Counted from the whole stretch's first letter, positions 11,671 through 61,672 are shown. The stretch is 61,672 nucleotides of DNA, filler included, from Dugesia japonica (GCA_001938525.1; 6 parts of 6 records of this genome joined end to end with filler, not necessarily neighbours in it), one strand, 5' to 3'. The notes: generated from the sequence alone by a model not told the origin. Numbers and translations are program-made.

Positions 11671-12875
11671 TGAAAATGCGCTGGAATGGATAAATAAGAA
11701 TTTAAATAAAATAAATTAAGTAATATTGTAATAAGCCAGAATAAATATATGAAATAAAAATTGAAATTATATACAAAATAATAACAGAATTTATATATTA
11801 AATTTTAAAGTAAAAGAATAATAAATGAGTAAATTACAATGTTAGTAAAGAATGCTGGAATTATGTAATTAGTATTGAAATAGATTAATAAATGAGAAAT
11901 GATAGAAAGAGGAATGAATGTGTTAACGGTAAACATGTAAAGATATACAGATTGTAATGAGCATTATAGTGTCGAAGTGTAAGACGGAAGGGGAAACCGA
12001 TTAATATTAAATTAAATTAAATACAATGATGTAGAAATAATTTTAAAAAAATATTACCTTGAAAAACAGCGAGGTTGGCGCCCACTAAATGAATAATGAA
12101 AATGAACAACTATTTATACCTTCGGAAATCGGCTATTAATAAATCAAGTCGACATGAGTAAACAAAAGATCTCATTTCAGAATCGTTATCAAATAAGGGA
12201 AATATCAAAATAAGAAATAATTAAATTTAAATTAACTTAGTAAACATCAAAGTTCTCGGTATGTTTACATGGAGCAAACAATTGCGAAAAATACCCAAAT
12301 AAACTTAAAATATTTTTATTATTAAAAAGTGGTAATTAAGAAAAATAGTAATTAAAAATTTTAAANNNNNNNNNNNNNNNNNNNNNNNNNNNNNNNNNAT
12401 CAAATTGTAGTTTTAATAGGGATTATGCATAAAAATGCAAATAAAAATATAAAATAACAAAATGTTAGGATACATATATAGTAGCGAGAAAGAAGCGAAG
12501 AACATCTCTAACAGAAAAAATTTAAGTTGTTTGAGTATTCTATTGCTTTTGGATACTCAATGGTTTTCAAAGTATTCCAGACACTTTCAACACAACCATA
12601 ATATTTTACCTGAAAAACATCATATTGCATTGAAAACATTAGGAACAGGCTACATTTCTACACTTCACAGAAAGAAAACATGAACAAATATTAATTAAGC
12701 AGGATAAACCTAAGATCAATATAGTTTTTAATAATTAAAATAATAAAAATTTTTAAAAAATTAATATCAATATCAATAAAGTAAATTTTGAAAAATTCAT
12801 TAAAAAACGAAATAATATTGATAAAACTTAAGTAGAACAATTTTTGTAAGAAAGCTTTACTTTATTTAAAGTTTG

Positions 12876-13152
12876 TCATTCGTCCAAGTCTATGATTTTC
12901 TTGTTTTTCTCATTTATGGTCTCCTTTTCGATCTTGGATATCTGAGTCAGAGTTTGCACCGTTGATATTAACACTCCTTCTTGATCTGCATAGGCTTTAT
13001 TGATGTCTGCCATCATGCGACATTCTCTCTAAGGAGTACATTCTTTCTTTGTAATTCGGTGATCTCATTCTGCAGCTTTTTGTGTATGGAGCTCCACTTT
13101 TTCTTGATATCCTCTACAGAGGTATCCACAGTTTTCTTTCTGGCATTAGACA
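12876..13152 (-). pseudogene. Coiled-coil cassette ORF, block A (start by A|TG splicing; one frameshift)
   Basis: Acceptor ttacag|TG TCT AAT gives (M)SNARKKTVDTSVEDIKKKWSSIHKKLQNEITELQRKNVLLRE-fs-RMMADINKAYADQEGVL...IIDLDE*. AATAAA follows at 12861-12866. Confidence 0.6.
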
Positions 13153-13457
13153 CTGTAATTAATTAGAGATATTATATTATTTTATGATCATGTTTTTAAT
13201 GTTAACACAATTTATAATCTGCTTCATACTAAGTTTATAATAAGAGATCTGCAAGTTTGTAAATGTCAGGCATCAGATACGGAATTTGTGTTATTTGATT
13301 AACGAGTTGATCTTTCATAATAATTTTGAACNNNNNNNNNNNNNNNNNATAAAAATATACATTGATAATACTCATTAATGTTGTCCATTTTTATTTACGA
13401 ATGAGAATAAAGAAAGGCTAAAGAATAAAATTATATTGAGATTTAATAAACAATCAC

Positions 13458-14093
13458 ACAGCTGTCTCTTTAATATCACCCGTCTCATCCAATGGCGTCA
13501 GCAATTTCTGTAAAATCGTCTCCACCTTGACGGACAATCTCTTGGATAGCTTTGCATACTCTTCGGGTTCCACTTGAATTGATCGCATCATTTGGATAAC
13601 AATTCTTTAGTGCCATTCATTTCTTCAGCTTGGATATTTGTAAATCTTTTTGTTGGAGACGACCTTGCACTATCCACCACGGATCTGAATCTGTTCCTTC
13701 GGATCCGAGTGAGTACCATAAAACTGGCATGCTGTTCGGTAGCCGGTAGTGAATGACCAGCCTGTCCTGGACAATGATTTCGCTGCTTCTGCTTGTATAA
13801 TTCATCGAGTCATCTAGATGAATATGACTAATGCCTCATGATTACAAAAGTAATTATGTCGAAAATCTTAAAGAAATAATACTCGAGGGATACTCTCTCA
13901 TCATAAACAAGGCATATATCATTCGTCAATATGGATGGAGTGGGATCTTCTTTTTTTATCATATTGTTTATTGCCATTTCGAACGTCATAATTCCGAGTA
14001 TTACTTCATATTGATGAACCATTCTTCATGTATATCATACTGCTTAAAGAACCATCTTCTTTTAGATGACGAATAGTCCTCCGGTTTTGAGTA
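13458..14093 (-). pseudogene. Decayed cassette ORF of unknown function, block A
   Basis: GC-richer coding-like tract behind acceptor gttacag| at 14094-14096. It includes ORF pieces 13828-14022 and 13617-13805 and ends ...LDETGDIKETAV*. Confidence 0.45.
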
Positions 14094-14838
14094 CTGTAAC
14101 ACTAAATTAATGAAATTATGTTTAGCAATTTATCTTTATTGAATCATTTTCAATAAATATAAAATTATGTTTATAATCAATTATCTATTAACCAATTAAT
14201 AATAGACATTCTATAACAATGTTATCATCAACAATAATATAATAATCAAAAATAAAATGAATAGATAGTCAAAATTCAAATTAATATTTTTATAACAAAT
14301 CACAATCATTTCATAAACATATTATTACAGTAGTGAGCAATACACGTAAGGATTCAACCACTATATCCCCGCAATTCTCAATCACCCTATCAACGATAAA
14401 ATAACAATTCATCTTTCCTTCTCACAAATTTTCATAATCATCGTAACAACTATGACATCTCGTCTGAATATCTTTAGTAATTTACATTAGTATACATCTA
14501 TCAACATTTCTTTCCGTATCAGTAAACATCTATCAACATCTCTTTCAGTTACCATCTAACAGTATCTCTTTCAATATCAGTCACATCCCTTTCGCGATTA
14601 TCACTTAACATCGTAATCATTAATTTCCGTATCATAATCGTAATCATTAAGATCATTTAATACCTCGTAATCATTATTCAATATCTCGTAATCATGGTGG
14701 ATGAGCTCGTGAAATCAAATCTCTGATCTGCAATGATCATCACTGCCAGCAGATCTAATTAATGAGGATCATCACCCCAGTTATCCATGTTTTATAACTG
14801 TAATATTAATTTAAAAATGTAAATCAACAAAATTTTAC

Positions 14839-14968
14839 TTTTCCTTTCTGAGCTGTTTTTCGTAAGTTTATAAGTGACAATAGCTACTTCTACTTTTAAC
14901 AATAAGTAAAGAAAAACAAAAATTTTAAAATTTTGAAGTTAAAATTGAGATTTTCATTGGCTTTTATA
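14839..14968 (-). promoter_or_regulatory. TATA box and leader exon ending in A at a GT donor
   Basis: TATAAAA at 14962-14968; no ATG downstream of the Inr-like TCAATTT at 14942-14948; donor GGAAAA|GTAAAA at 14839/14838; nearest acceptor ttacag| at 14798 gives a 41-nt intron. Confidence 0.6.
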
Positions 14969-17049
14969 CCCAACTGTTTCGTCAAATTTTGATAGATACA
15001 ATGGGAGGCCACTTCAAATTTTTAGAACTCACTGAATCGTGCGGAGCTCACTTCCAGATTCGTTAATGATGACTATATTTGGTCATTTATATTTATTCGT
15101 TTTCTTTTCTTTTCTTCTTTTTCACTCTTTGCACACAATTTTTACTTCACATATGATGTACCGGTGCTCACTCGGCATCATAGATTTTTTTTTAATTTTA
15201 GATTTTAAATGTAAAGTGCGGTGCTCACCCGAAACAGATTTCTAGAGAAAACTTCTTGTTGTAACTTGCACGGTTTCAAAGAAATTGGTGTTCATTGAAC
15301 CGGCACGAATCGCTGAAAAAATAATAATATTTATCGTGAAATAATAATATTTTTGAAAATTTGTTTTCAATGTATAAATACGGATAATTACACGAATAAT
15401 TATAAATAATTTCCTAATTTAACTTTTTTATTATCTTTCTTCTTATGTAACTACGATCTCTAAATTCGAATTCTTTCTTTATAAATAATATTTATACTAT
15501 AATAATAAAATTAATAATATTTATCACAAAATAATAATAATATTACATTCTAATTATTTTAATACGTTATTATAATAATATGATTTTCCTAACTACATTA
15601 TATTACTTTTGTTAACTTTTTTAAATTATAATAACAATAATAATTTATTTCATATTTCTTTTCTAGTAATTCTTCTGAATTTTATTGAAATCTTTTAATA
15701 TAATGTTTTTGTTTTAATTCTACTTTATTATTTTATAATATTTTAATCATTAATTCATTATATTTCTACTTCTATATCATTCATATAAATTATAAATAAT
15801 GATATATGTTCTTGTTCCACTTATTTGATTACTTTCCATTTATTATTTCAATTATTTAATTGAGCTTTTAAAATTTTTTATTGTTATTTCTTTGAGCATT
15901 ATTATTTATTCGTTTTCCTCGTTTATTATTTATTTTAGTGATCAATTCTCCTTGAATTTATTTAATTCTGTTTATAATAATTAATTCTGTATTTTCTTGA
16001 TATTAAACTTTGCTTTGGTGCTTGAGCCTCTTTTATTATCCATAATTCGGATGATTTTATTGGATTCCTTGTCTTTAATTTTTTTTGTCTATGACCATTT
16101 TGTTTTATTCGGATTTATTACTTCTTTTTAAAATATGTTAATCATTTTTCATTTTCTAATTTCAGTTTCGACATGTTGATTTATTTAATAACATTTATTT
16201 CATTATTCACTGATTAATTCATCAATAATGTTTATATTTATTCTGCATCATTTCTTTTTGATTTCGATTTAACATCATTTCTAATGCATTTTTGAGTTCT
16301 TTATCTCTAATTCTTTTCTCAGTTTACTCAAAATTGTCTCTTTCCGTTAACTGGGCTGTTTCAACTCAACAAAATGAATAAAACATTAATTATATATGTA
16401 GAAAATATATTTTAAAAATTAATAAAAAACAAAAAAAAAATTTTCAAAAAAAAATTTAAAATATTTTATAATTTTTTTATCTAAACTCTTATTGTGCTGC
16501 GCTGTTTTTTTTATGTTTTTTCTATATTTCTCTGTGTTTCGATATTTTTTTCAAAAGTTCCCATGTATTTTCAATAGGTTTTTTTAGATTTCGTTGAAAC
16601 AATGTATAGTTACCTTTTTTATGCTGATTCTAATGGTGCTAGTATATTTTTGTAAAAATTATATATATAAATATATAATCATTATATTATCATTATATTG
16701 GTTCGGTGTGTCAAACCCTATATCTCGAGAACAATAATATAATATAATATGATGTAATAAAAAAGTCCTAACTAAAAACACAAGGATTTAGTTGATCCTC
16801 TTACGTAAGGAAGGGAGGGGGAGGTGTTGCATGGCCCTACTATCCCTCTACAATAATAATAAGTTGATAGATACTGGCGCATCGGAATAAAGACATTTTC
16901 TCGCCCTACCCCCGTTGCCAAATGCTTTGCTAAAATAGATTGCGATTTATTTAATACTATAATTTCTTNNNNNNNNNNNNNNNNNNNNNNNNNNNNNTTG
17001 TCCCTGAAAATATTTAATAGATAATCCGATTGTGCACAGCATAGCGCTA

Positions 17050-19408: not shown

Positions 19409-19448
<40 letters not shown>

Positions 19449-20639: not shown

Positions 20640-20925
20640 CTCAGTGCGTCACTATCTTGACTAAAGGTTGTTGTAAATGGATTTTGATAACGAATTTTAT
20701 TGTACACAATTGGTTTCGATAATTTTGATAAAATTGCGACACCAACATTGACAAATAATAAAATGCTAGTGTATCAAAGACAAACATTAGAGTAGCACCC
20801 AATGTTATCCACCTAGATTTGATGTATGAGTATTGAAAATTAGGGTTTATTTACTGGAATATCATTTGGAAGTTTATTTAGAACATAAACACCTAGCCGT
20901 GCTAATCCAAGACACTTTGATGCAA
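20640..20925 (-). pseudogene. Polinton adenain-type cysteine protease remnant
   Basis: LGVYVLNKLP...FNTHTSNLGG*HWVLL...RYQNPFTTTFSQ, the decayed NT..S..PG.HW and Q......CG motifs. It lies directly downstream of a major capsid gene. Confidence 0.7.
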
Positions 20926-20989
20926 TCCAATAAATCTGAATAGAACTAATTAATTAAATAATAAATAATATAATAATTCTTAATTTATT

Positions 20990-22437: not shown

Positions 22438-22537
22438 NNNNNNNNNNNNNNNNNNNNNNNNNNNNNNNNNNNNNNNNNNNNTTAATTAATTAANNNNNNN
22501 NNNNNNNNNNNNNNNNNNNNNNNNNNNNNNNNNNNNN
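22438..22537. other. Artificial scaffold linker
   Basis: N44-TTAATTAATTAA-N44. Confidence 0.97.
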
Positions 22538-22741: not shown

Positions 22742-24052
22742 TACTACCATGATCAAATAAATATCCGGTCAACTCAATTTAAAATGAAACAAACTATTTA
22801 TTCAACACAATTTTAATTGTCACCTTCGAAGTAGTCTCCATTAACCAAAATGCACCTATGCGAGCTTGTAATCCAATTTTCAAATGCATTCTGGAACTCC
22901 TTCTTTGGTATACCCAACAACGCGTCCTTCATTTTTTGTTTGATCGCTTCAGTGGTATCAAAAAATTTTCCTCGAAGTGGGTTTTCAGCCTAATCAATTG
23001 GAAGAAGTCGCAAACAGCCATACCTGGTAAATTTGTTGCATTTTGGATGGTATTTGTATTGAATTTTTGCAAAAAATCTCGAATAACTATTGCATTGTGA
23101 GCTGATGCATTGTCATGGTGAAAAATCTAGGAATTGTTTCTCTACAAATCTTTTCTTTTCAAACAAACAGCTTCAACCAATTGTCTCATAACACCTAGAT
23201 TATACTCCTTGTTGACTTTTTGACCTTTCGGAATAAATTCATGGTGTACAACTCCATTGTAATAGATGAAAACGGTCAGCATGACCTTACTTTTTGATTG
23301 AAAACGACGTAGTTTTTTCGGTTTTTGCTCTTCCGGAGACTGCCTTTGACTTAATTGATGTTTGTTTTGAGTTTCAAACTCAAACATCCATGTTTCATAA
23401 CCAGAAATTTTACGTTTTATAAATGTTTCATCAGAATCAACGTTAGAGAGCCTGTTCTTTGAAATTTAAATAAGACTAAATTTTTGAAAAATGTTCAATT
23501 CTCATGGAACAAGTCTTGCAGCAACACGTTTCAATCCCAAATCCTGATGCAAAATTGTTTGAACTGTTCAAAATGATATTTCTGTATCTTCAACAATCTA
23601 TCTGATAGTCAATTTCTTATTTTCTATTAATAATTACTTTATTTCTTTGATATTTTCTTCGTTCTTCGAGGTTGATGGTCTTCCAGATCTAGGATCATCT
23701 GTGAAAATCGTCATCTAAAAATCGCGCATACCATTAATTAGTTGTTGATTTTGATAAAGCATTGTTGCCACAGAACTTCTGTAGCATTTTCAAGGTATCG
23801 AGACGTTTAATTTCGTTTTTGACGCAGAATTTAATTCAAATTCTTTGTTCAATTGTATCATCAATCTTACATATAGAAGATAACATTAAAATTAATTTAA
23901 ATAAATTACTGTAGCTTTTTCAAATTACGGTCTGTTCAGCTGAAATTTGGTGATGTAGTAAAACAAATATGTAGCAACTATTAAAAATACGAATTACATC
24001 TATAGCATTTGTGTGTGAATTTTAAATTGGGTTGACAGTGTATTTGGTAGTA
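22742..24052 (-). mobile_element. Near full-length mariner element (decayed)
   Basis: TIRs TACTACCA...TCAACTCAATTTAAAAT and ATTTTAAATTGGGTTGAC...TGGTAGTA. Transposase pieces EQRI*IKFCVKN, DPRSGRPST, SKSKVMLTVF..GVVHHEFIPKGQKVNKEY and FHHDNASAH. Confidence 0.92.
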
Positions 24053-25119: not shown

Positions 25120-25846
25120 GACAAGATTTGATTTCCACATCTTTTGATGTCAGATCAAAAGCTGCAGCGTTTACAAACTTTGCACGACTTTGTTGAATAG
25201 GCCGACCACAATCCTTCCTTTACAAGCAACATGGTTATAGGCACTGAATCGTGGCGCTTTTATTCTGATCCATCAACAAAACTTCTACCAGCCGAATGGC
25301 AAATGAAGAATCAGAGAAACTTGTTAAAATTAAAGCGACATAGTAAAAATATGAAGATAATGCTTATCGCCTTTTTTAATTCACGGGGTATTATTTATCG
25401 TAAATTTGTTCCGCTAGGTCAAATAGTGACAAGAGCATTTTATCAATTGGTCCTACCACGACTTTTTTGAATAGAATTCGAAGAATTAAACCGGATTATA
25501 CAGATTCATGCGGTTGATTTCTTTTGCTCTATAACACACCTTTACATGGATTACTTACTGTTCCACGATATTTGGCGAAGAAAATGTTTTTCGTTATCAA
25601 ACATCCACCCGATCTAACTCTGATATACTACTGTCTCTTTCCCAAGCTTAAAACAGCCCTTAATGGAAGGCCTTTGATAAATTTCAGACGATTCAGGAAA
25701 ATGTGACAAGATTCTTGAAATAAATTTTAAAAAGTATCTTGACGCTTTTCAGCGGTTGTATGAACGTTAAAAAATAAAATTTGTTTTGTGTCATGACTTT
25801 TGGTTTCTATAAGATCAGTCCCGGAACTTTTTGAATACACTATATA
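25120..25846 (+). mobile_element. mariner transposase 3' fragment
   Basis: VIGTESWRFYSDP, KIMLIAFFNSRGIIYRKFVPLGQIV and HPPDL...LFPKLK. TIR-like end GTCCCGGAACTTTTTGAATACAC followed by TATA. Confidence 0.85.
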
Positions 25847-35063: not shown

Positions 35064-35179
35064 GAAAAAAAAACCATCCCAAAAATCATGTCACTAAAAA
35101 TCATGTCACCATCGTAATGTGTTTTCGAGCCCCCCCCAGTGCTATGTGAGTAGTGACAATGCGCTACTATCCCCCTACT
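35064..35179. mobile_element. Terminus of a further, probably Polinton-type element abutting the MCP gene
   Basis: Ends CCAGTGCT...ACTATCCCCCTACT, resembling the end at 42297-42319 (CCAGTGCTGCACTATCTACCTACT). The MCP reading frame runs right up to 35180. Confidence 0.55.
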
Positions 35180-35790
35180 TTTGCATCCTGTATTTCATAC
35201 TTGGGTTCATAAGCTGCTGATTCCAAACATAATTTTGCTGGAGCTCTCTTCATTCGAATATGTAAATTAACACCGGGAATAAGATATTTCAGTTTATCCG
35301 TAAAGTAGAGTTGCAATGATCCACATAGAGTCAATGATTTTGATAATTTATGCCACTTTTTTCTATCTGCTTACGATCCATACTCCATTGCACTTACACA
35401 TATATTCTTACTATCACCATTATAGTTCAGTACAGTTTCAATCGATGCTTTTTGAATATTTGTTCCGTTTTCCCTTTCAATCTTGATATTATTAAATGAT
35501 AGAATGATATCTTTGAACAATTTATGCAGCATATAGTTGGAAACCATTGCTCCTGAAGCTTCAACCAAAGCCTTGTTTGTCTTATCAACTACTCTTATTT
35601 GTACGTATAACATAGTATTATTCAAATCCAAATATTTAGTTTGGGATCCATTGATAAAAAACTCTATATTATTCCTGCTTTCGGAAAGAGAGTTCATAGG
35701 AAACACATCTTCAAATGCATCATATTCAATCACTGCTTGAGGAGATGAACGGTCAAAAATACGCAATGAATACGCAATAAAAACTTGATT
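35180..35790 (-). pseudogene. Polinton major capsid protein, N-terminal part
   Basis: PMNSLSESRNNIEFFINGSQTKYLDLNNTMLYVQIRV...NYMLHKLFKDI...IETVLNY...KYLIPGVNLHIRMKR. Confidence 0.88.
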
Positions 35791-36185
35791 TCTTGCGGTT
35801 TTTATGTCCAGCTGCTGATGTTGTGGTAACCGATTCCACTTTTGGTTGATTTTTTAGAAGACTAGGTAATTTACTTGATATACTTGACGGCAACATGTTT
35901 GCAACCTTTGAAAACATACTGGTCATACCGGATGGTAATGAAAAAACTGCATTACCGAGCTCAGCCATTGCATTCTTTTTCAAAGTCGCCAATATCTTTC
36001 AATTATTAGCCAGTACATCCTGAGCAGTTTTCATAACAAATGAGCCAATACGCTTATGAATAAGACTTGTAAATCTCTCGATTGTTCGCAACCAACCAGA
36101 TCCTATATTGTTTACTTATAAAATATGGCAATTCCCCACCAGCTTAACTGCTGCTATACAACGAAACAATATCCGGATTAGTCAT
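35770..36185 (-). pseudogene. Polinton small amphipathic (membrane-active/core-like) protein
   Basis: MTNPDIVSLYSSS*AGGELPYFISKQY-fs-GSGWLRTIERFTSLIHKRIG... has QxGG/QxGxG adenain-site-like motifs and sits between the minor and major capsid genes. Confidence 0.7.
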
Positions 36186-37171
36186 TTGGTTTTCAAAAAT
36201 GTAAAGTTAAATGTGTGTTTGAATGTTTTGGAAACTTTATTAATTTTCCGTTATCATCGCGTATATTAATTTTATACTGTTTATACATGATGTTGCAATA
36301 GGTAAATACATTGAATTCTCAACTATTATTTGCACTACTTCATCAATTTTATGTTTGTCTATCCATATTGATTTCAACAAAGGTACACTAACATCACCAA
36401 CAATTATAGCTTCAACAAGAATACTATAGATGAACATTTGCTGATGTAACTTCATTATTTTTAATTTGGTAATAGCTATGAACTCACTTCCGTTCATATC
36501 TGTAGGAGAATATAATTGTTTGTCTATTACCAATGTTCTTGTTAAGACATTATAAAATACAACTTTTTAACATCATATTGTAGATCGAATTCAAAATATT
36601 TATCTGCATTTAAAAGACATTTCTTAAATATTTGAGTACAATTTTCTGATAAATATTTACTTAATCGTTCTAATTCTAATATGTATATAACATCTTTAAA
36701 CTGGAAAGTATGATAATTTACCTTTGCATAAGCTACTTTTACTTTTACTGTTTGTATTGTGTCATCATTTGCAAAGTTTGTTAATTTGTTAGATTTAAAT
36801 CCTAATCCAAATGAGTGTGCAATATTTGCATCTTCACAATAAAAAGTCACAATAAAATCACAATAAAATCTTATGAGATTCTTTTCAAATATTTCAATAT
36901 TTGCATTTTCATCAACATTGATCGCTTTTTCCTTGTTATTTATTGCTACAGTTATTTCATTCAATATATTTTTTGCGGTCAAGTATTCAATTTTCGACTT
37001 GCTTTATAATAGAAACGGAGAATACAGAAAGGTGAAATTCATCAATGCAACTTACCAAGCACCATTCAGGTAAATTGCATTTTGAAGTTCAACAATGAAT
37101 TTACTGGCTGTATTATCGGGATGAACACGTCAACTACTATTGCTTGGCAAAAGCATATAGAAATCATTCAT
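36178..37171 (-). pseudogene. Polinton minor capsid (penton)
   Basis: MNDFYMLLPSNSS*RVHPDNTASKFIVEL...W*VAL; MFIYSILVEAIIVGDVSVPLLK; C-terminal IRDDNGKLIKF...THLTLHF. Confidence 0.88.
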
Positions 37172-38169
37172 ATTAAATGTGATGCAGATATCTAATTTGG
37201 TCTTTCATATCTAACCCACTTGATATATAATTCTTTATTAACTTTTCGTTTCGTCTTGAGTACTTTTTCTCTATATATCTCTGGTCGTGGAATGACGTGT
37301 AACTTGTGCTCATAGAATTTACCCTGATCTTTGTTCATGATCTTTAATTACATACATGACGGGATTCTGTTTTAAATTGATATTTTCTATTTGAAACACT
37401 TCATCGCTCCAATTAGTATCGAAATTCTTGATGAAGGGGAAAGCTGATATCTTTGATATTCTAACATGGTTACCAACTTTATATTTCGGATTTTTGACTA
37501 CTTTCTTATCTTGTTTGCTTAACCATAACTTTAGTTGATTGTTTGATTTGACACCAAATGGTCTTGTTTCTTTCAAATCTTTATGACTAGAATTATTATA
37601 ACTATGAATTTATTTCGACAAAAAATTTATTCAGGTTTTCTTTCCAGTATGCACAAAGTATTTTTTCAAAGCATCTCTTAATGTTCGATTAAAACTCTCT
37701 ACAGTGCAGCCTTGTACTGTGAATGTACTGTATAATGGTTTATTTTTAAATGTGCTAATAGATTTTTAACTTTTGAATTATAAAATTCCTTACCCAAATC
37801 AGTTTGTATATTATCTTGAGACCCAGTCTTCAACATTGTTTTGATTGCAGTTTCCAAGCCGGTGGCAGATTTAGGTTTTACTGTAATTACACGTGCAAAT
37901 CTGCAAAATACATCAATACACGTCAAAATATACTTGTATTCCTTATTAATTTTCGAATACGGAATCATCTCCATCAAATTCATTTGCCATAAATTGTTAA
38001 TACCATATGTCTTATAGGCTCTCGTTGGGAATCCTCTCAACATTGGCTTGTTCAGACTGTATACCAGCTGATTTGCCAACCACTTTTGTGTCTTATTTTT
38101 CGATTTTTGAGCTTCTTTCATTAATTTTTTTATTCCTCAAAACCCCTGTTCGCTTTTGGGTTTGTCCAT
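37170..38169 (-). pseudogene. Polinton retroviral-like integrase with C-terminal chromodomain-like tail
   Basis: LWQMNL (first catalytic D decayed to N), YILTCIDVFCRFA, IQTDLGKEFYN, RFNRTLR, PKYKVGNHVRIS, NWSDEVFQI and LYIKWVRY. Confidence 0.92.
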
Positions 38170-38269
38170 ATCGTCCACAGTTTTCCCATTGCAACATTTT
38201 GATGATAATTTAAAATCAATGTTCGACAAAGATTGTAAACCACTCATTGTTTTTTTGAAAGGAGACGCT

Positions 38270-38572
38270 TCAAATGCTGCCTTTGCAATTGGTAATAGAG
38301 CTGCAATGAAACTACCATCTGGTTTATGGATAACCTTTCTCATCAGCCTTTTATTTTTGCTATTTACAAGACTCAATAGTGACTTTTTATGTTTTTTCAA
38401 TACTTCCTTTTTAGCTTTGCATACATTAACATTACCGTGAACAATATTTACAATGATTTCTAGCAAGTCATCAAAAACATATGTGGGAAATGACTGCAAA
38501 TCTTTTATTCTCAAGTGTTTTGATGATTTGAGCAATGCATTAAAAAACGGAAGACTATGTTGTAATTTCATA
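38270..38572 (-). CDS. Conserved small basic Polinton protein
   Basis: LLEIIVNIVHGNV...KEVLKKHKKSL...RKVIHKPDGSFIAALLPI matches the N++.GNV...QxGGF+..LLP pattern of Polinton core-like proteins. Confidence 0.7.
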
Positions 38573-38597
38573 TTTAAGTAAAATACATCTTGATTGT

Positions 38598-38828
38598 TTA
38601 TAATGATATCCACTTTCTCTTTACGCTTTTAAGCTTTTTTCCATACATTTTCTACAGTTTTTTGAATGTTATCAACTCATTTATCTTTAGAATTTTCTTT
38701 TCAATTTTTCTCTTTCCAATCTTACTCTTTACTACTGGTATATTTACTACTGGACGTTTGACAGTAGGCACTCGTTTTCTTTTAACGGTTTTTACCTGTA
38801 TAACTATAACTTTTTTAAATTTAGACAT
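38598..38828 (-). pseudogene. Short, very basic ORF after the ATPase (possibly an internally deleted Polinton gene)
   Basis: MSKFKKVIVIQVKTVKRKRVPTVKRP...KKL*KMYGKKLKSVKRKWISL*, with one internal stop. Confidence 0.45.
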
Positions 38829-38829
38829 T

Positions 38830-39469
38830 TATAAATAACATATTTACCTCGATTGTTTATATATTGTAACACCTTTAGAATTCCAAATATCTGTTCTAAC
38901 ACTCAATTTATCTGGACATTCTTTAGTGAAGTCGAGAAAAGAATATCCGTGCGCGTTTTTTGTTGCATCCTGAAATGATTCAATAAGATATTGTCTGTGT
39001 TTGAATATGTCTGTCTTTCTAAAAAATCAACAACTGTTTGATCCTTTGGGTTCTTCAATAGAACCAGGTATTGAACATTTAAGTTTTGCGTTCTGTGACT
39101 CCCACCACTATGAAATAGATTTTTGGTAATGAATATCATAGTCACGCCTATATATCTTGATATCTTTGTGAATAAATTATTAAAATCCTTTTCCTAGTTT
39201 GCTTCGTGGAACAAATCATCAATTATAATGACATCTCTCGGTTTCAATCTTTTGCTCCAATTATTATCGAATCCATTTTTAATTTTCATTTTGATATTGC
39301 AATATTCCAATTGAGTCGCTCTCTTCTCTTCATCAGCTCCTCTTTGCCAATATATTTTGTTGAATTTAGATTTGAACAAGTCTGATTTCAATAATTTGCA
39401 TACAAACAAATTTTTTCCACTGCCGCTAGGACCGAAAATTTGATAGGTTGCATCGCTTCTCGATTACAT
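38830..39469 (-). pseudogene. Polinton A32/FtsK-like packaging ATPase
   Basis: Walker A IFGPSGSGK, Walker B VIIIDDL, and IFITKNLF...RTQNLNVQYLVLLKNPKD. Confidence 0.92.
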
Positions 39470-39546
39470 ATTTCCTTAAAATAAATTAATGCTTTGTGTA
39501 TATCAGTTGTTTAAATACATCAATTAAATTAATTAAAACGAAACCT

Positions 39547-39580
39547 TATAAATACGAATGTAATCAAAGACCAATCATTT
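39547..39580 (+). promoter_or_regulatory. TATA box and Inr-like site of the TBP-like gene
   Basis: TATAAAT at 39547-39553, TCATTT about 28 nt downstream, ATG at 39584. Confidence 0.6.
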
Positions 39581-39583
39581 ATA

Positions 39584-40032
39584 ATGCTTGTAAATATTAA
39601 TTACATGGGGAAAGTAGAGAAAGAAGTAGTAAACAAGATGAAATTTCCAATTGGAAAACCATGTCAAGTTGCTGTCAAAACTGGAAATCATACTATAATA
39701 TTCTTCAAGTCTGATAATTGCAGAATAATGGGGTGCAGAAAACCATTAGAATTAAATGAATTGCAGTACCCCATAGAAGACATTTGGTTGCAATCTCTGA
39801 CTACCGTATTTAATTTTGGGCAAAGAATTTATTTGTATAAATTATCGAAAATAGCAAAATGCTTGTTTGAACCGGAATTATTTTCCAGGTTGCGTATTAC
39901 AAAATTCAATCCAGTATGTGTAAACGTGTTTTCAACGGAAAAAATAGTGATACTCGCATAAAAAATTTTAATTATGGGGGATATGTTGATAATATTATAT
40001 GCGACATATACAATTTAATTGAAAAAATATAA
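39584..40032 (+). CDS. Polinton-encoded compact TATA-binding-protein-fold protein (one 3' frameshift)
   Basis: Repeat 1 TIIFFKSDNCRIMG (compare TBP TALIFSSGKMVCTG). Repeat 2 LQSLTTVFNFGQRIYLYKL...FEPELFSRLRITKFNPVCVNVFSTEKIVIL (compare IQNMVGSCDVKFPIRLEGL...YEPELFPGL...LLIFVSGKVVLTG). Restoring one G near 39956 gives VILGIKNFNYGGYVDNIICDIYNLIEKI*. Confidence 0.8.
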
Positions 40033-52199: not shown

Positions 52200-53125
52200 A
52201 GTGACTATTGTTTATTTAACAATAAGATGGATATTATTACCCTTTTACTGGTAATTATGATTGCGATTTTGAGAATTTAAAACATGCTTTATTAAAATAT
52301 TCTAATGAATATTTAAATAAAAATGTTANACAGAGTAATCATGATTTTATAATATTAAAAATCTTTCAAAAAAGCCTATTAAAATTTGTAAATTTGATAA
52401 GAGTAATAGCATTTTTATTCTAAATGACTTTGAATATATAAACAAAGTCGAGGATATTTTAAAAGGAAAAAAGTAAAATAGATAAATTCAGAAAAAATGG
52501 CAAATTAACTATAAAAGATGAAGACTTTTTAAATTCTTTACTTAAGCAATTTATTTGTAAAAAACACTTTAATGCTGAGTAGTATAAACGTCTTAACTCT
52601 GTTGGTTCTCAGCCAGCGAAGTTATATGGTCTTCCGAAGGTTCATAAAAATAATTATCCAATGAGACCTGTTTTATCTATGATTAACACGGCTCAATATA
52701 AAGTTGCTAAATTTTTAGATCAAAAAATTAAATTGTTAATTTCTTCTAAAACGAATCTAAGGATAGTTTTGAATTTTGTAGTTTCATTTCTAACCTTCAT
52801 GTTAACAATGCAACAGAATGCATGATGTCTTTTGATGTCGTGAATTGTGGGAAAGTAATTTGGCGGAACATGGTATGTTAAATGTCACAGGTTTTAGGAA
52901 GCTGTTGACNNNNNNNNNNNNNNNNNNNNNNNNNNNNNNNNNNNNNNNNNNNNNNNNNNNNNNNNNNNNAGTTGCTATGGGTTCTCCTCTTGCGCCTACT
53001 CTTGCTTCATTATTTCTTTCGAATATTGAAAAAAAGATTGAGTTGTTTCCCGGAATTAAGCCATTGATATATAAGCGTTATGTGGATGATATTTTCTTGG
53101 TGTTTAGTAATCAATCTAATATAGA
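52200..53125 (+). mobile_element. Penelope-like retroelement reverse transcriptase (decayed)
   Basis: PAKLYGLPKVHKNNYPMRPVLS, MMSFDVVN, VAMGSPLAPTLA and YKRYVDDIF. Confidence 0.92.
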
Positions 53126-53699: not shown

Positions 53700-54545
53700 C
53701 TATGAATATTTTAAGATGCTAACAGTTGATTGTAAACAATGGTTTTGTTATAAGTTAATTGATTAGCCAGCATTCCTTCAAAGCCAAACAAATGTCATAG
53801 TTTTATTAAGTTGATTAAATTAATGAAATATGACCATTTTTAATTGAATCGTTTAGAAATTTATTGCTCGCAAAGGATGCCCCAATACTGAACTAACCAT
53901 GTTTGTTCCAGTTTTCATGTTTGTAGCACATAAAAAAGAAATGGCCCAAAGAATTTATACCAATAAAAGTGAAAAACAGTCCTTGAGTTATATTTCCAGG
54001 AGGTGTGGAACAAAGATTTGAATTATAAGTTAGTCTAACAGAAAAGAGCAAAAAACGTTTCTACAGTACAACCTTACGAATATTTTCAGATGCTAACAGT
54101 TGATTTTAAACAATAATTTTGTTATAAGCTGATTGATTCTCCTGGATTCCTTGAAAACCAAATAAATCTCATAGTTTGATTAAATTGATGAAATATGGCC
54201 GCTTTAAATTATATCGTTTAGAAAGTGTTTGTTGGCAAAGAAGGCTCCAATACTAAACTAACCAAGTTTGTTCCAGTTTCCATGTTTGTAGAGCATAAAA
54301 AGAAATGGCCCAAAGAATTTATGCCAATAAAAGTGAAAAACAGTCATTGAGTTATATTTCCAGGAGGTGCGGAACAAAGATTTGAATAAGTTAGTCTAAC
54401 AGAAAAGAGCAAAAAACGTTTCTACAGTACAACCTTACGAATATTTTAAGATGCAAACAGTTGATTTTAAACAATAATTTTGTTATAAGCTGATTGATTC
54501 TCCTGGATTCCTTGAAAACCGAATAAATCTCATAGTTTGATTAAA
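53700..54545. repeat. Tandem repeat, unit about 360-375 bp, about 2.3 copies
   Basis: GAATATTTT(A/C)AGATGC(T/A)AACAGTTGAT recurs at about 53704, 54078 and 54439 with collinear downstream sequence. Confidence 0.9.
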
Positions 54546-55999
54546 AAATAGCAAAATTATTATAGATTATTTAAAATAGTTAAACCCGGGAAAATTTGGA
54601 GATCCAATTTAAAATCCGGGTTCGGAGAAATTTGTCGAAAATCGAAAGCCCTGGACACATACATACAAATATATACTAAAATTTGACTAATTAAAATGCA
54701 ATTTGAATTAAGCGCATAAAATTATACTTCCTTTCATGGTGAAAATCCGTAATAATCATGATAAAACGATAATTTGTGTAGTTCGCTTATAAATAGTCGC
54801 TGAATGTTTTGGTTTTAATTTCAATGTAATTACAAAGTACAAAATGATAGGACAAATATATATTTAATTGGCCAGTCGCCAAAATGATTCGTTTCACAAT
54901 TATTTGTTTTCGTCAATAAATATTTTTAAATGTGACAATTTAATTATTTCATTCTGAAATTTCACGGTTTAAAATCATAATTAAAAAAAGAAATCAAAAT
55001 AAAATCTGTGTGTAATTCAAATATTAAATTAATTAAATTTAAAATTAATTATAATAACTGACAATTTCTATTATTTAGCTTTGTTAAGAAATAACATCAA
55101 AATTTGTAAATTTTCTAATACTTAAATTATTGTATTTTACATTTGAATGGATCCGATTCTACTGAAATCGAATGTTTATAATTATTAAAATACATAGTTA
55201 TCAAAGTTTAGAATTAAATATAATTTAAATGGAATATTAAATTTCAAAATTCAATTAAATGAACTATAAAGTAATTAATAAACCTACGTTTCGACTTTCA
55301 AAGGACCTTGAGACAAAAAATGATCCTAGAAATAAAATTTCAGTTAATATATTAAGAAACTAACTATATATTTTATTTATATGTGAAACAATAAAATCGT
55401 GTAATTTAAGATTATTTCCAAATTTACTAATTATATAAAACGTTAAAAAAATAAAACGAAAAATAAAAATTTTCTAACTTAAGTTTCCGAAAAATCACAA
55501 AATAATTTTAATAAACTTTCAAGCGTTAACATCTAACCTCAATTTTAATTCCAGGACTTTCCTGGATTTTATTAGAAATTAAATCTTCAGAATCTCTAGA
55601 TTCATTTAAATCTGGTATATCAATTTGAAATATATCAGCGTGATTCATTTATTTATGAATCTTAAGTTAAAATTGCAAAGCATGAAATATGAAAATTGAT
55701 ATAAATAAACAAAGTTTTGTGGTAAAAAATATTTTGTTTAAATTTAAAAATTTAAAAATTACTTAGTACATTTAAAGAAGACAAAAGTTTATTGAAAATT
55801 TTGTGAATTTTTATTTTAGAATTTTGAATTAAATTAATTAAAATTATTAACCAATAAAAGTTGATTAAAATAATTTTAAGTAGAAAATTTTTCGTTTTAT
55901 ACTTTAATTTTTATCTTTGACTTTTGCTAAATAAATTATGTGTGAAACTAAGTGTTCTTTTCGAAAATAAATTGTCTTCCAACAATTTTACTAATAAAT

Positions 56000-56612
56000 A
56001 TCAATGCAATCATAGACAGATTATTACTAAAGTATTGTGTAGAAATGGTGACATTAAAAATTCATTAAGCGTCACCAATTATATTTTCACGCAAAGAAAC
56101 AAGATGATTTTCTTGTTTGTTAGGTAAAGATTTGCTGGAATAATATATGAAGATGTTAAAAGTTGTTTGTGGTTGGCATCCAAAAATGAATATGACCAGT
56201 CAAATTTAAACGAAACTTAGTAACTTTAGATCCAGAAAACACAATAAAGCTAAATAAATTTTTCTGAAGAAAAATCGACGAAACGAATATTCAGAAACAA
56301 ATGTATAAGAAAATAATTTCAGTTACGCCAGATGCCTTACTGGCTTCAAACAATGTCTCTTACAAAATCGCAAAATGTAAAAATTCTCATACAATAGGAG
56401 AAACATTACTTTTATCAGCAGCTGTTGATATGGTGCGAATAATGTTTGGTGAATTGCATGCAAAATAGTTGCAATGAATTCCGCTTGTTTATAATACAGT
56501 CGTAAGAAGAACCAGTTATATATTTGAATATTTTTGTGATCAATCAATTTCCGTCTCCGTACTTCAAATTTTGTTATACAAGTAAATGGGGCAACTGATA
56601 TTGCTAAAGATG
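56000..56612 (+). mobile_element. hAT transposase N-terminal half (ZBED5/SCAND3/Buster-like), truncated
   Basis: ALLASNNVSYKIAKCKNSHTIGETLLLSAAVDMVRIMFGE...FVIQVNGATDIAKD, then an abrupt break at TGTTGGGG. Confidence 0.85.
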
Positions 56613-56914
56613 TGTTGGGGTGAAACACTAGAGAATGGAAAATAAACCAGCGATTAGGTACACCTAAATTCTAAAAGATGTCACAAGAAAGATAGCGAAG
56701 AACACAGACAAAAGAAGGAGTTTAACCAGTTACTGAAAGGAATAATTCAAGAATAAACCGTCCCTGGGGTAGGTTTTCAGTTTACTGCGGTTGACGTTAC
56801 TTTTAAGGGAAGGTGTACACCAATAAACCTTTATGTTTGGGTTCTTTATTTTTTTCCTATTTAAGGTAATTAAATTTAAAGTCCTAATTGAAAATATTTA
56901 TTAATAGTACATGT

Positions 56915-57297
56915 TTAGAGTAGATCTAGCGCTCCTGGATCTAACCATTGGTCTGGATTCGTTGTGATGAAATTAAATGCCGCAATGTCATCGTCTTCAT
57001 CCCACTGCAATATATTAGGATTGCCGATCTGACGGGATAGGTCAGCAATGTATTGCTGCAAAAATTCGATTTTACGTTGCAGTAAGAGTTTGTTCTCGTT
57101 CTCCAACGTCTTTGTCTGAGTGGTGAGGTCACTTTGCTTTTTTATGATCGTATCCAGTTTTTTAATCAGCCTATTACGTTGGTCAAGATGTTTTAATAGA
57201 GCTCTATTGGCTTTCCGTTTCAAGTGACGTTCTAGAAGGAGACGATGTAGGATGCGGTGGCATCTTCTAAGATTATTTGGAAAATGGATTCGAGGCA
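56915..57297 (-). CDS. Cassette B4: basic/coiled-coil protein with acidic tail, no in-frame ATG
   Basis: ttttag|TG CCT CGA...; 127 open codons; AATAAA about 12 nt after the stop. Confidence 0.6.
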
Positions 57298-57424
57298 CTA
57301 AAATATAAGAACATTAATTGAATATAGTGCGTATTAGATTTAAGGAAGTTGATTATTAAATAAGTCAATAAAGCAGAACTATCAAAACAGGAGATACAAC
57401 AACGAAATTTTATATTTTTAACCA

Positions 57425-57792
57425 TTAAGATCGGGAGTTGTTTTTAGTTTGAGTGCCCTTGTCGATCATAAGGGGCTCTAAATATGATTTCTCTTTCAGA
57501 TGCAGGGTATCTTTAACCAGTTTATTTTTGCGGTCATGCCTGTACCGGATAAGTTCGGAGAAAGATTCTACTTGGGTCTTCCAGGCCCGTTCTTGCTCTT
57601 GGACTAGCTTCATTTCGTCACGTATATTTGAACATTTGTTCTTGAAACGCTTTAATTTTGCGTTGGCGGTTGCGATTTCGGCTTCCCAACGCCGCTTAGC
57701 CAGCCTATAAAGGTTCCACGTCATTTCCTTATCCTCGCTAACTTCACGTAGTTTTTTGGTTGGAGGCTGAGACCGATTTAAGGAAGAATGCA
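57425..57792 (-). CDS. Cassette B3: coiled-coil protein, likely homologue of 12876-13152
   Basis: ttctag|TG CAT TCT...; 122 open codons; KRRW-x16-KCSNIRDEMKLVQEQERAWKTQ. Confidence 0.62.
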
Positions 57793-57938
57793 CTAGAATA
57801 TAAATAGTGTAACATTTAAGGCCTATAAAGATGACAGGACATAATTCAAAACAAGATGAAATTATTTAAACCATGATTATTTAATTCAAAACAATAGAAT
57901 AACATTCCGCTTTTAGACATTAAATTATAACAGAGCAT

Positions 57939-58367
57939 TTACACCAACACATCAAGCTGTTCGTCGTTGACGTTTTCATTGTTATTATTAATCATTGCGT
58001 TTCGCACGCCCCATAGATTATTCTGGATGAAGGACGTGAGCTGTGTCGTAGGAGGCAAGAAATTGGTGGTAAGTCCGACTGATGATGGGTCATCATGCCA
58101 GAGACGTTCTATTTGCGGGGTTTCTGTCGAACGTTCAAAGGAAAGCAGTGCTGGGGGAATAACGACCTGGTCTCTTCTAGGGCCACGCCAATAGTAGTAA
58201 GCAGCTCGTTCTGTTGCGTCCCATCGGCGATCATAATCTGCAGTTTCGGAAGGTAGATTGGCGTTATCAACCAATACATCGGCATCGCGGTTATATGGGT
58301 TTTTACATTGTTTGAATGTTGTGCGACCTGAATAAACGTCGAGGCACACTTCCCATTTAGATTCCAT
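57939..58367 (-). CDS. Cassette B2: unknown protein of about 142 aa
   Basis: ttgtag|AGTTCATC ATG GAA TCT...; open, GC-richer frame. Confidence 0.6.
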   Translation of the reverse strand: MESKWEVCLDVYSGRTTFKQCKNPYNRDADVLVDNANLPSETADYDRRWDATERAAYYYWRGPRRDQVVIPPALLSFERSTETPQIERLWHDDPSSVGLTTNFLPPTTQLTSFIQNNLWGVRNAMINNNNENVNDEQLDVLV

Positions 58368-58534
58368 GATGAACTCTACAATTAACAATTTGTGATATGA
58401 TTGTTGATCAATTATGAAATTTAATTGCAATGCAACAATATTCAAAATCAAAAGAGAGTGTTTTAATTAAAATTAGGCAAAGGTTTTATTTTATGACAGC
58501 ATAAACAACAAGGAAATATAAAATGAGCGATTGA

Positions 58535-58717
58535 TCACTCTTCATCCATGTCCACCCGATTCGGACACGGGAACCTCTCGGCGAAACACTGGAGGTCAGT
58601 TTCGTCGGGGTGTTCCACCGCTCCCATTGTCAAATAATGGGTTATTAGCTGCTTAAGCCTAGCAGACCGCCGTTGTTGTTTGATCCACCAAAGCATGTGG
58701 CGTAGTTTGGCTGGCAT
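58535..58717 (-). CDS. Cassette B1: unknown 60-aa protein or terminal exon
   Basis: tttcag|TTA ATG CCA...; AATAAA about 45 nt after the stop. Confidence 0.45.
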   Translation of the reverse strand: MPAKLRHMLWWIKQQRRSARLKQLITHYLTMGAVEHPDETDLQCFAERFPCPNRVDMDEE

Positions 58718-59119
58718 TAACTGAAATGACTAACATCATAAAATTTTTATCTAGATTTTTTCTGGTTCGCCTAAAGTTGGATGGCAACATTAATCACCAA
58801 GAATGAAACTGGAGTGAAGTGTTAAGAACTAATGAATTGGCCATATGAACGATGACGATAGCTCGGAAGGAAACATGGATATTCCTTGTTTAATAGTAAT
58901 GATACCGATAGTACATGGGTAAAAATATTTTTGTCAAAGTAACACTACTAAAATCATTGGTCAAACGGTCATTAACGTTGATAGTGTTCCTGGTGCTAAT
59001 ACCGAGCATATTGTTGGTAATGTTAAAAATATGAACTTTGCCATTACAAAGATTTTATAATCCGTATCGTATACCCTAATAGTAAGGATGGTGACGAGAA
59101 CCACAGCGGTACTAATGTT

Positions 59120-59505
59120 ATTAATAATAATAATAGTGTGAAACAACAATCAAAGTACTAATGATAATGATAATAATAATCATCGTGCTAATATTAATGA
59201 TAATAATAAGAATAATAATCGACGTACGAATAACGATAATAATAACGGTAATAATTATGGTAATCATCAATAATAACAACAATAATAACCGAAATAATAG
59301 TAATAGCTATAATAATAATAATATTAATAATAACAGTAATAATAATAATCGGAGTAATAATAATAATGACGATAATAGCAATAATAATCATAATAACTAT
59401 GAAGTTGATTGTATTAATAGTAATGAAGATATTAATAATATACATAGTAATCCTAATAGTAACAATAAAGGATATTATTAATGACCAGAATAATAACAAT
59501 AAAAA
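59120..59505. repeat. Degenerate (AAT)n low-complexity tract
   Basis: Produces the spurious poly-I and poly-N ORFs in the track. Confidence 0.9.
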
Positions 59506-61289
59506 ATTAGTGATGATCATAAAATTCATAATTTTCTTTAACTTTAAATTTTCTACAGTTTATAGTTGTTTAGTGACGCTCTCCATAGTAACGGATGGGG
59601 TTACAGTAATTGTAATTGGACTTGTCATCTGCTGTAGATATTATTCAAGTGGGTGTGTGCCAGCGTTGTTCATTGCTGTATCTGTGAATTAAAGTTGAAC
59701 AATGTATCGTTATTGGATATGACTAACTCTGTTGGAATTTCCACACTCCTGTCGTGAATCCCAACTATCGACATTATCAGAGAAGGCATTATAGTATTTC
59801 ATCTCTCATGCTACACTGGATATTTTATTTATATGTGGTTGTTAATCAGGAGAAATTCGCGTGCTTCCAAAAATTTAGTGCCACCGCGCCTGAACTAGAT
59901 TTCAGCAAATTATTACTTGGTTGTCACTTCTATTGGAATTAACTTATTCGACATTCTATTTTATAATGGAAATATAGTGGCTCTGATTTTATGTGGTTTT
60001 TCGTGGTGAGATAAGAGACCACTTCTTATGCCACTTGATTATTTATGCAGTGGTTAAAAAACAATATTGTGGGTTAGTTTAGTTATAGAGCAAAATCATT
60101 TTCTTAAATAAAACTTTATATTTCATGGTTATTTATTTATTTCACAAAGATTTATTAAATTTAACACTATGTTGGTGAAACAATCTTTATTATCTAATTG
60201 ACATATAATATAACAACAGAAAAAATAATTTTTTACTTTATATCAAAAGTAGCTCTGCAACGGTGAATGTGAAATTAGGGCTTCAACTATTATTGCGATT
60301 CCTACTGAGATTGCTCTTTCTATTTTCTTCCACCGACTGAGTATTTATCTCTTATATGATCAAATTGGTAATCTGTTGAATCGGTTTTTCTCCAAGTTTA
60401 GTTATTCACTGAAATTAACACGGTGCAATCTAATACTAATGGTTTTCGCAAAAATTTGTGATTGTTTTCTGCTAAACTTAGGGGTTCTTTTATAGGATTC
60501 CTTTAACACCCCAGCTTGAGCCTGATTTGAGGGTTATTTTTAACTTGGTGTTCTCTGATTTTTATTGGCGTTGGTGCCATTTCTCTAAAATTTTCTCTGA
60601 ATTTTGGTGCTGTTATTGGCAGCTATTTTTATCAGACCACCTGATTTTTTGGTCTTTGTTTTATTTTTAATTTCTGGATGCTCATTGGTTGTATCTTAGA
60701 AATCTTACCATACCCTTCCCGAAGATGGTACGTTCTTTCTTTTTTGGATTTTAGTTGCGCCTGCTTATTTCCTTTTCGATTTGTCTTGTCCAACTTCTCT
60801 CCGACTTCCCTGACCGAAGTTATCTGTAAAAAAACAGATTTTTATCTAATTTTGTTTCTTTTTTATTTAAAATTAATTAATTTTTTCTTCATTAATTAAT
60901 TATTTTCCATATTACTTTTCTTGTTATTTCTTTTTATTTTATAAATTCTTCTTAATTTCTAATCATACACCGCTTCCATTTTTCCATAACTTTTGATTTA
61001 ATTTCGTTTCTTCTTATTACTGCTTTTGTGCTTTATTTTCCATCCCTGTTGATATACAGCTCCGACATTGACTTATTTTACATCTTAGTGGGTGTTTCAC
61101 CCCAATAAATTTAAAACAAATTATTTTTAAAAAATAATTATTTCGTGAAAAATGGCAAAAATGACAACTTCCCATTATGGAAAAATTAGTAATTAAAAAG
61201 ATTCTGGTCAAGAAAAAATCGGAGATCTAGAAAATCTTAGTTAAAAATCCGTTATGAGTCTCAGAAAAAAGATACAAGGGTTTGAAGGT

Positions 61290-61422
61290 GGACCAATAGA
61301 TTCAAAATCTAAAAATGTCAACCAATCAAAAGAACGCATGTGACCATCTGGCCAATCAAAGCGCCAANNNNNNNNNNNNNNNNNNNNNNNNNNNNNNNNN
61401 NNNNNNNNNNNTGGTATAAATA
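61290..61422 (+). promoter_or_regulatory. Triple CCAAT boxes plus TATA box
   Basis: CCAAT at about 61294, 61322 and 61352 (about 30-bp spacing), then TATAAATA at about 61415 after a gap. Confidence 0.55.
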
Positions 61423-61672
61423 CCGATGTAATTTTCACAAAAATATACGTATATTTATCAAGGAAATACGGAAATTAAAACGAAATAAACACAAAAGGTG
61501 ATTATTTATGCGATTCGATTGATGATGCAACGATTTCCGACTGGATTGTTCTGTTTTTTTATGGAGGACCACTGGAGTCACTATTGGACACGAATGGAAT
61601 GGATGTTATGCTGTTGTGCTTGCTCCGGATCGGGATCCAGGTCACGTTAGTTTTGTTAATTATGTTAATTGT

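Follow-up and report, generated by a model that had tools for sequence, protein, structure and literature searches.

How does a reading frame without a start codon of its own come to be expressed, and what kind of element carries it? These questions are raised by four short frames (B1 to B4, together block B) on the minus strand of a 61,672-nucleotide stretch of Dugesia japonica DNA (GCA_001938525.1; hereafter the window), each of which lies behind its own putative splice acceptor. Two of them open with TG directly after the acceptor AG, such that an upstream exon ending in A would complete the ATG. A sequence-only reading had proposed an undescribed spliced array of accessory genes belonging to a mobile element or an endogenous virus. 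Here we report that the frames belong to real, conserved genes carried by an abundant mobile family, and that their predicted splicing design is well formed. Our main reading, a gene-bearing solo LTR of the Gypsy type with its own promoter and one leader serving alternative acceptors, has a probability of about 0.45. Its features are collected in Table 1. At 8883-8982 and four further sites the window carries 100 bases made up of 44 N, TTAATTAATTAA and 44 N, likely an assembly gap marker; the window would accordingly be a scaffold with gaps, in which sequences on either side of an N run are not certain to be neighbours.

Table 1 Features of block B, the unit that carries it and its sister block A (positions counted from the first letter of the window)
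Feature	Position	Strand	Remarks
Mobile unit	56613..61107	-	4,495 bp; ends of the TG...CA type; enzyme genes not found
5' terminal inverted repeat	61070..61107	-	14 bp perfect, ~38 bp imperfect; here starts TATTGGGG
Earlier donor candidate	60910..60923	-	60916/60915; lies before the TATA box, less likely
Three CCAAT boxes	60564..60688	-	at 60688, 60619 and 60568; predicted promoter
TATAAAAG box	60487..60494	-	predicted TATA
Predicted non-coding leader exon	60237..60465	-	ATG-free, last base A; start placed from TATA spacing
Degraded middle region	58721..60236	-	broken frames; candidate acceptors 60194, 59956, 59682; ATT/AAT low-complexity tract 59159-59396
B1	58535..58720	-	60 aa, own ATG at 58717; weakest of the cassettes; 3/3 difference sites at codon position 1/2
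Spacer 1	58376..58534	-	159 nt, 25% GC, terminates in B2 acceptor
B2	57939..58375	-	142 aa, ATG at 58367; homologue search blank
Spacer 2	57793..57938	-	146 nt, 25% GC, terminates in B3 acceptor
B3	57425..57792	-	opens AG|TG; 122 aa with spliced Met; basic, probable coiled coil; homologue search blank
Spacer 3	57298..57424	-	127 nt, 24% GC, terminates in B4 acceptor
B4	56915..57297	-	AG|TG start, Met-less, 127 aa if spliced; basic N-half, predicted helix of 84 residues, acidic/aromatic tail
Two AATAAA	56845..56902	-	56902 and 56850; predicted poly(A) signals, then T-rich stretch to unit end
3' terminal inverted repeat	56613..56650	+	TGTTGGGGTGAAACAC; interrupts transposase-like remnant at 56612
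Block A	12860..16371	-	diverged sister unit; same 5' end (16371), TATAAAAG (14968), donor 14836/14835, AG|TG at 14102 and 13153; 12860 approximate

When the sequence was re-read, the four minus-strand frames were present as claimed behind AGs ending at 58721, 58376, 57793 and 57298; B3 and B4 each open AG|TG in frame, B4 is devoid of any in-frame Met, and the earliest Met of B3 is residue 23. The lengths originally given for these two hold with the spliced Met included, but only 121 and 126 aa follow AG|TG itself. In B1 and B2 an ATG is found 3 and 8 nt after the AG, respectively. Counted from their own AGs, B2, B3 and B4 are in phase 1 and B1 is in phase 0. Because TG directly follows 33 of the 466 acceptor-like sites in the window (7%), its occurrence in two of four cassettes is suggestive but not overwhelming.

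Open frames might simply arise by chance in a GC-richer repeat. Across 5,000 dinucleotide shuffles per cassette, any of the three frames stayed open with a frequency of 0.0006 for B2, 0.0016 for B3 and 0.0014 for B4, and of 0.18 for B1; B2 to B4 are well beyond chance and B1 is weak. The earlier picture of four cassettes with AT-rich spacers of about 130-160 nt stands for B2 to B4 (chance openness below 0.2% each), each of which is preceded by one of the three such spacers; B1 (18%) has none, and its place as an equal member of the array is doubtful. GC content amounts to 41-52% within the frames as against 24-25% for the spacers, and the borders drawn by a two-state GC model (58354, 57930, 57775, 57431, 57298 and 56917) fall 1-21 nt from the AGs and stops of B2 to B4. 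On the upstream side of B1 the GC content is 34%, the high-GC block begins at 58878 and a second AG lies 9 nt further upstream. Chance would accommodate the openness of B1, the near absence of RNA and the failure to find homologues, but it is at odds with the openness of B2 to B4, the GC borders at AGs and stops and the codon-position pattern described below (p=0.001), which leaves it next to negligible.

T-rich, AG-free tracts precede the acceptor sites and are kept between copies. Seven contig joints fall over the spacers, and in five of these the match picks up again 13-28 nt ahead of the acceptor AG, indicating that the acceptor tract has been kept while the spacer core has diverged. The X9 and X10 contigs lack 58738-58946 (209 nt, flanked by two similar 25-nt stretches), a form absent from the X1 and X8 tables; AG|TG there directly precedes the B1 region, and the start of B1 may vary between copies. 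Reading the 58727-58947 joint of these contigs as a splice was rejected: its ends are not GT-AG and it lies between two similar stretches, so that we take it for a deletion form. Further upstream, at 58830-59480, lies an AAT-based tract whose plus-strand translation is rich in Asn, Ser and Asp and whose minus-strand translation is rich in Ile and Thr; next to it, frames are nearly open on both strands (5 stops in 147 codons and 4 in 134), and the region is possibly a decayed fifth gene.

The unit is repeated many times over. DNA run X1 yielded 9,323 contig pieces on 56300-61367 at 80% likeness, 514 of them at 99% or above and 3,710 below 90%, and run X8, labelled as a second organism, yielded 1,404 on the same interval. 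The contig identical to the locus has a depth of 19 and the summed depth over the cassettes runs into thousands, a figure that measures neither copy number nor expression and is taken here to mean 'many copies' only. Thousands of diverged contig pieces, together with the mobile-element ends described below, uphold the earlier claim of a gene array belonging to a multi-copy mobile element. The common phase of B2 to B4 would also suit a host gene of the mod(mdg4) or lola kind that is present once and uses terminal exons alternatively, but copy number and mobile-element ends largely refute that explanation. Cassettes resolved by spliced-leader trans-splicing fare no better: animal spliced leaders typically end in AG or AUG, and such a leader gives no in-frame start at AG|TG, the phase-0 frames being 4 and 21 codons long. 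Host exons or trans-spliced cassettes are accordingly judged highly improbable.

Had the frames been kept by the family? Forty of 1,771 differences between this copy and others are listed, chosen by an unspecified rule, and 17 of the 40 lie within frames (B1 3, B2 8, B3 4, B4 2). At all 17 sites at least 92% of the X1 depth has a letter other than the one in this copy. Every one of the 17 falls at codon position 1 or 2 and is non-synonymous (p=0.001, among the 40 of 1,771 differences listed), and among the six frames only the called ones combine openness with an absence of position-3 sites. The simplest reading is a family that holds codon positions 1 and 2 constant and varies at position 3, from which this copy has drifted. 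Judged by this pattern, the frames appear conserved across the family while this copy drifts, which agrees, among the differences listed, with the sequence-only reading, for which ORFs not conserved among copies would have been a refutation. The description of the frames as intact is correct in that they are open, but openness does not imply that this copy is under selection (17 private amino-acid changes among the 40 of 1,771 differences listed). Two more difference sites, taken from raw RNA reads, are synonymous, and three contig joints inside the first half of B3, which point to divergence there in some copies, count against uniform conservation. Very probably, B2 to B4 are real genes of the family.

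The unit terminates in integrase-type ends (TGTTGGGG...CCCCAA[C/T]A). The window contains two copies of TTGGGGTGAAACAC in inverted orientation, one at 56615 and one at 61105; with two mismatches allowed, a pair of matches arises in 3 of 100 shuffles. Two contigs from two runs match the right end as far as 61105, continue with CA and then enter different, AT-rich flanks, which identifies 61107 as a real end. The inverted similarity stops after about 40 nt: beyond that point the score is 78 as against 77.5 for shuffled sequence, and a long terminal inverted repeat (TIR) was rejected for this reason; a two-LTR (direct-repeat) reading of the two ends was likewise rejected (score 38, shuffled maximum 50). 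Metaviridae (Gypsy) target-site duplications (TSDs) measure 4-6 bp; in this copy none of 4, 5, 6 or 8 bp was found with slips of 2 allowed. Neither a PBS nor a purine tract is present in its flanks, as expected for a solo copy. Pfam returned no transposase, integrase or RT match in B1 to B4 or in the six frames of 58721-61107, a silence that is weak on broken frames because the transposase-like flank was missed too; that remnant, for which Pfam gave no match, we take to be hAT. Rfam produced three chance-level matches on sequence and no ribozyme.

On the minus strand the predicted signals follow one another in the order of three CCAAT boxes, TATA, genes, AATAAA and T-rich tail, a succession that is U3-R-U5-like; words and order also match the Metaviridae LTR layout of a TATA-like box, AATAAA and a G/T-rich stretch. 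As this promoter-genes-poly(A)-T-rich order is enclosed by TG...CA ends and contains no enzyme, we consider it likely that a Gypsy-type retroelement left the unit behind as a solo LTR with genes of its own, and we somewhat favour an LTR over a DNA transposon. The termini fit the Gypsy LTR integrase consensus TGTTRNR...YNYAACA, with TGTTGGGG at 56613 and the opposite end one base off in this copy, a consensus that the available text of PMC3601003 and PMC2836005 gives as common to Ginger. Against the LTR assignment counts the predicted R region of about 3.6 kb (start to poly(A)), far above the 10-180 bp stated in the available part of PMC3601003.

A possible but doubtful alternative is a non-autonomous, Ginger-like cut-and-paste DNA element carrying the same promoter, leader and spliced array, with the integrase residing in the variable middle of autonomous copies. 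As far as Ginger is described in the available text of PMC2836005, its TGTNR ends and length of 2.6-7 kb are shared by the unit, whose imperfect repeat of about 38 bp approaches the 40-bp lower bound of Ginger TIRs; both ends are T-rich toward the outside and two contigs have AT-rich flanks, and Ginger2 targets AT-rich sites. The same repeat is nonetheless at or below the lower TIR limit (40-270 bp), Ginger has one transposase gene rather than an array (PMC2836005, available text), this copy has no 4-bp TSD (CCGG/CCGT or within RTATAY), and Pfam, with low sensitivity on broken frames, found no integrase remnant in it. The unit is filed under neither Gypsy LTR nor Ginger, since a TSD is absent here. 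Adjoining it at 61108-61672 (plus strand) is a separate, very common repeat with CCAAT at 61293, 61322 and 61352, TATAAA at 61415, beyond a 44-N run, and AATAAA at 61484. This succession of promoter and poly(A) words faces away from block B, and the repeat is possibly another LTR.

Where would a leader come from? TATAAAWR words number 74 in the window; three of them have at least two CCAAT within 220 nt upstream and two have three CCAAT, including the one at 60494. From 60470 to 60237 there is not a single ATG, and the stretch terminates in AAA|GTAAAA at 60237/60236. In block A, too, the TATAAAAG box is followed by an ATG-free stretch and then AAA|GTAAAA; the donor regions of the two blocks align with a score of 41 versus 27 (29 of 1,000 shuffles). 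The donor proposed by the sequence-only reading at 60916/60915 has the sequence as written but is probably wrong, as it precedes the TATA box, has six ATGs ahead of it and is positioned unlike its counterpart in block A (192 nt from the unit end compared to 1,536 nt). The donor at 60237/60236 probably fits better; it is the best candidate, not a proven one, because the interval from 61107 to 58721 offers eleven donor-like sites whose exon would end in A. Either donor (60237 or 60916) gives the same products of 60, 142, 122 and 127 aa.

The likeness to block A that had been noted reflects a related unit, with 5' end, TATA, donor and AG|TG sites common to both; the 5' ends score 184 versus 148+/-11 (1 of 300 shuffles). 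The frames of block A are broken, its 3' end was not found, and the B proteins have no significant match among them. A further degraded, A-rich unit occupies 17000-20640 (minus strand). Behind an acceptor at 17711 it has a coiled-coil frame of 81 aa before the first stop, and its C-terminal stretch resembles a zipper (HALZ, E 4.5e-4, short of the cut-off); the ends of the unit were not found, and it may be a third one of this build.

In the mechanism that we propose, transcription would begin near 60465, as placed from the CCAAT-TATA promoter of the unit itself, and one ATG-free leader (donor 60237) would be cis-spliced onto alternative acceptors. Its final A would join the TG of B3 or B4 to write the ATG, the acceptor used would pick one protein per mRNA, and all mRNAs would presumably share the poly(A) site after B4. 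Since the start codons of B3 and B4 need the splice, unspliced element RNA would not make either protein. That one leader feeds B2 to B4 by cis-splicing we consider probable.

Four raw RNA runs of the same species label were scanned at 88% likeness (6,890 million letters, 6-25% of each run), a threshold that reads from copies less than 88% alike would escape. Reads were nearly absent on the cassettes and the leader and no splice junction to the acceptors of B1 to B4 was seen in these runs: depth was zero in most cassette bins, at most 0.83 elsewhere on the cassettes and about 0.1 on the leader. The one stranded-looking run had the first mate on the minus strand for reads of B1 and B3 (about four reads, two starts), which is antisense by the usual convention. 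None of the 15 contig joints listed (of 48) has GT-AG ends. The family is near silent in the RNA samples, and splicing is consequently neither shown nor excluded by them.

This silence bears on a further explanation, in which the genes are real but have no single non-coding leader, being read from a GUG start (the G of AG plus TG), by re-initiation, or from a phase-1 coding upstream exon fused to B2, B3 and B4 as alternative last exons. Junctions are absent from RNA runs and contigs alike, GTG is in frame at B3 and B4, the three cassettes share phase 1 from their AGs, and AATAAA or ATTAAA is present in two spacers. Such a scheme leaves unaccounted for the T-rich, AG-free tracts kept before the sites, the ATG that B2 has of its own 8 nt on, and the ATG-free stretch from TATA to donor, and we hold it to be unlikely.

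What the genes encode can be approached through the proteins. Searches for homologues were blank, with 5 candidates for B2, 3 for B3 and 16 for B4; an atlas search gave no usable match for B2, and B3 had none among 1.84 billion representatives at E 0.001. B1 was compared with Pfam and the window only. Among B1 to B4 Pfam gave only sub-threshold coiled-coil matches and no env or bZIP, no PDB sequence matched B2, B3 or B4 below E 0.4, and viral contigs had no match to these three or to an end motif. The one metagenome locus, a bacterial chemotaxis region, was rejected as spurious. Structure prediction, which had been suggested for all four proteins, was informative for B4 but not for B2, whose model is unusable (pLDDT 32). 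The B4 model, a single-sequence prediction, is one helix over residues 7-90 with pLDDT mostly above 90; it has no match at E 0.001 in PDB or among viral folds. B4 carries 14 K/R in its first 45 residues and a K/R-free tail that is acidic and W/F/L-rich, and from this composition and the predicted helix we infer a resemblance to a basic-zipper-acidic-tail factor. True bZIP factors differ in having a basic region at fixed spacing to a leucine zipper, whereas B4 has a long helix only, no bZIP Pfam match and no significant similarity to C/EBP-beta (E 2.4). A regulator role of the proteins is likewise something we infer; they would most likely regulate the element itself or host defence.

The window also holds broken Maverick/Polinton-like remnants on the minus strand at 35100-40000 and 20980-22440, with an integrase (PF00665, E 4.7e-9) and what are presumably ATPase-like and capsid-like frames, the capsid-like part being present in two copies 72-75% alike. 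These remnants speak for block B having come from a Maverick-like element or an endogenous DNA virus, as a piece whose transcription unit is leader-spliced, and adenovirus late units do indeed join one leader to many acceptors; yet the unit has TG...CA ends of its own, which enclose it within 4.5 kb, and has no viral gene, fold or viral contig match, so that this origin is quite improbable. Gypsy-like gag and protease remnants are found at 300-1150 (minus strand), with a TGG primer-site-like word before the first, and at 55980-56220 (plus strand). At 23142-23465 (minus), 25201-25470 (plus) and 52583-52825 (plus) lie two mariner transposase fragments (PF01359, the first at E 4.7e-10) and one RT fragment on which Pfam is blank and which, by motif, we assume to be Penelope-like. 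A tandem repeat occupies 53704-54545 (361-bp unit, 2.3 copies, 88% alike). The transposon remnants, taken with a GC content of 25%, suggest an animal host.

For the gene-bearing solo LTR a wider, tentative generalisation can be put forward, which we think unlikely as it stands: giant LTRs would be multi-gene units in which one leader, joined to at least four acceptors, writes the start codons, solo LTRs would be free-standing cassettes of orphan regulators, one of them resembling a basic-zipper activator in shape, and blocks A and B would stand for two or more diverged families of this build. If true, a giant multi-gene LTR would explain the kilobase length of some invertebrate Gypsy LTRs. Should the main model hold, virus-like leader splicing would extend to an invertebrate transposon family, there would be a reason for very long LTRs, and candidate element-encoded regulators or silencing antagonists would be supplied. 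Annotation of animal mobile elements usually starts from their enzymes; an abundant, enzyme-less unit that carries several conserved orphan genes therefore escapes standard pipelines, and its ATG-less cassettes are overlooked by gene callers.

How does the unit compare with known systems? Foamy virus and foamy-like fish ERVs also have accessory genes near or in the LTR that are made by splicing, as are MMTV sag, HIV nef and HTLV HBZ, the last a zipper protein. These, however, belong to vertebrate retroviruses, and the genes are situated within U3 or ahead of it, whereas those of unit B lie inside one repeat, with the predicted promoter on one side and the poly(A) signal on the other. A leader-spliced array of orphan genes inside an LTR or TIR unit was not found in the literature searched, so that the word 'undescribed' holds within that scope; Repbase and Grohme et al. 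2018 (Burro LTRs) are outside it and may already describe the unit.

Ginger1 and Ginger2 share with it the TGTNR ends, the 2.6-7 kb length, short TIRs and introns, but unit B has neither integrase nor 4-bp TSD and bears several small genes in place of one transposase (PMC2836005, available text). Burro elements are longer than 30 kb, of which the internal part takes up no more than 25 kb (PMC6431247, in the part available), sizes which imply that multi-kb LTRs exist in an AT-rich animal. Compared by description only, these giant planarian Gypsy elements (Burro/GYPSM1) resemble the unit in their thousands of copies, AT-rich host, implied multi-kb LTRs and accessory ORFs; they differ in that the accessory functions reside in the internal polyprotein or an upstream ORF, and the available text describes no LTR-borne array (PMC6431247). 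Cer1 CERV, a regulator involved in RNA export (PMC10309623, available text), and the ORF3s of bdelloid LTR elements are likewise extra genes expressed from spliced mRNA, some of them coiled-coil; going by the available descriptions, they are single internal ORFs and not an array (PMC10309623, PMC5408684).

The closest parallel in design is the springer subclade of Drosophila iERVs (errantiviruses), in which, according to the available part of the source, env is spliced onto an AU dinucleotide (10.1101/2023.08.03.551782). Unit B would share with it a start codon split over the junction, which here fits by frame arithmetic, and the expression of a 3' gene from spliced RNA of an LTR element, which here is predicted. 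The differences are considerable: there, one env gene receives AU; here, up to four non-env orphans would receive A from the leader, and unit B is a single TG...CA unit without gag-pol, whose products of 60-142 aa have no env match and no counterpart to the errantivirus F-type envelope glycoprotein. A start codon split by splicing is thus already known from springer env, while an array of four was not found in the literature searched; expression of block B would most likely work like errantivirus env expression multiplied.
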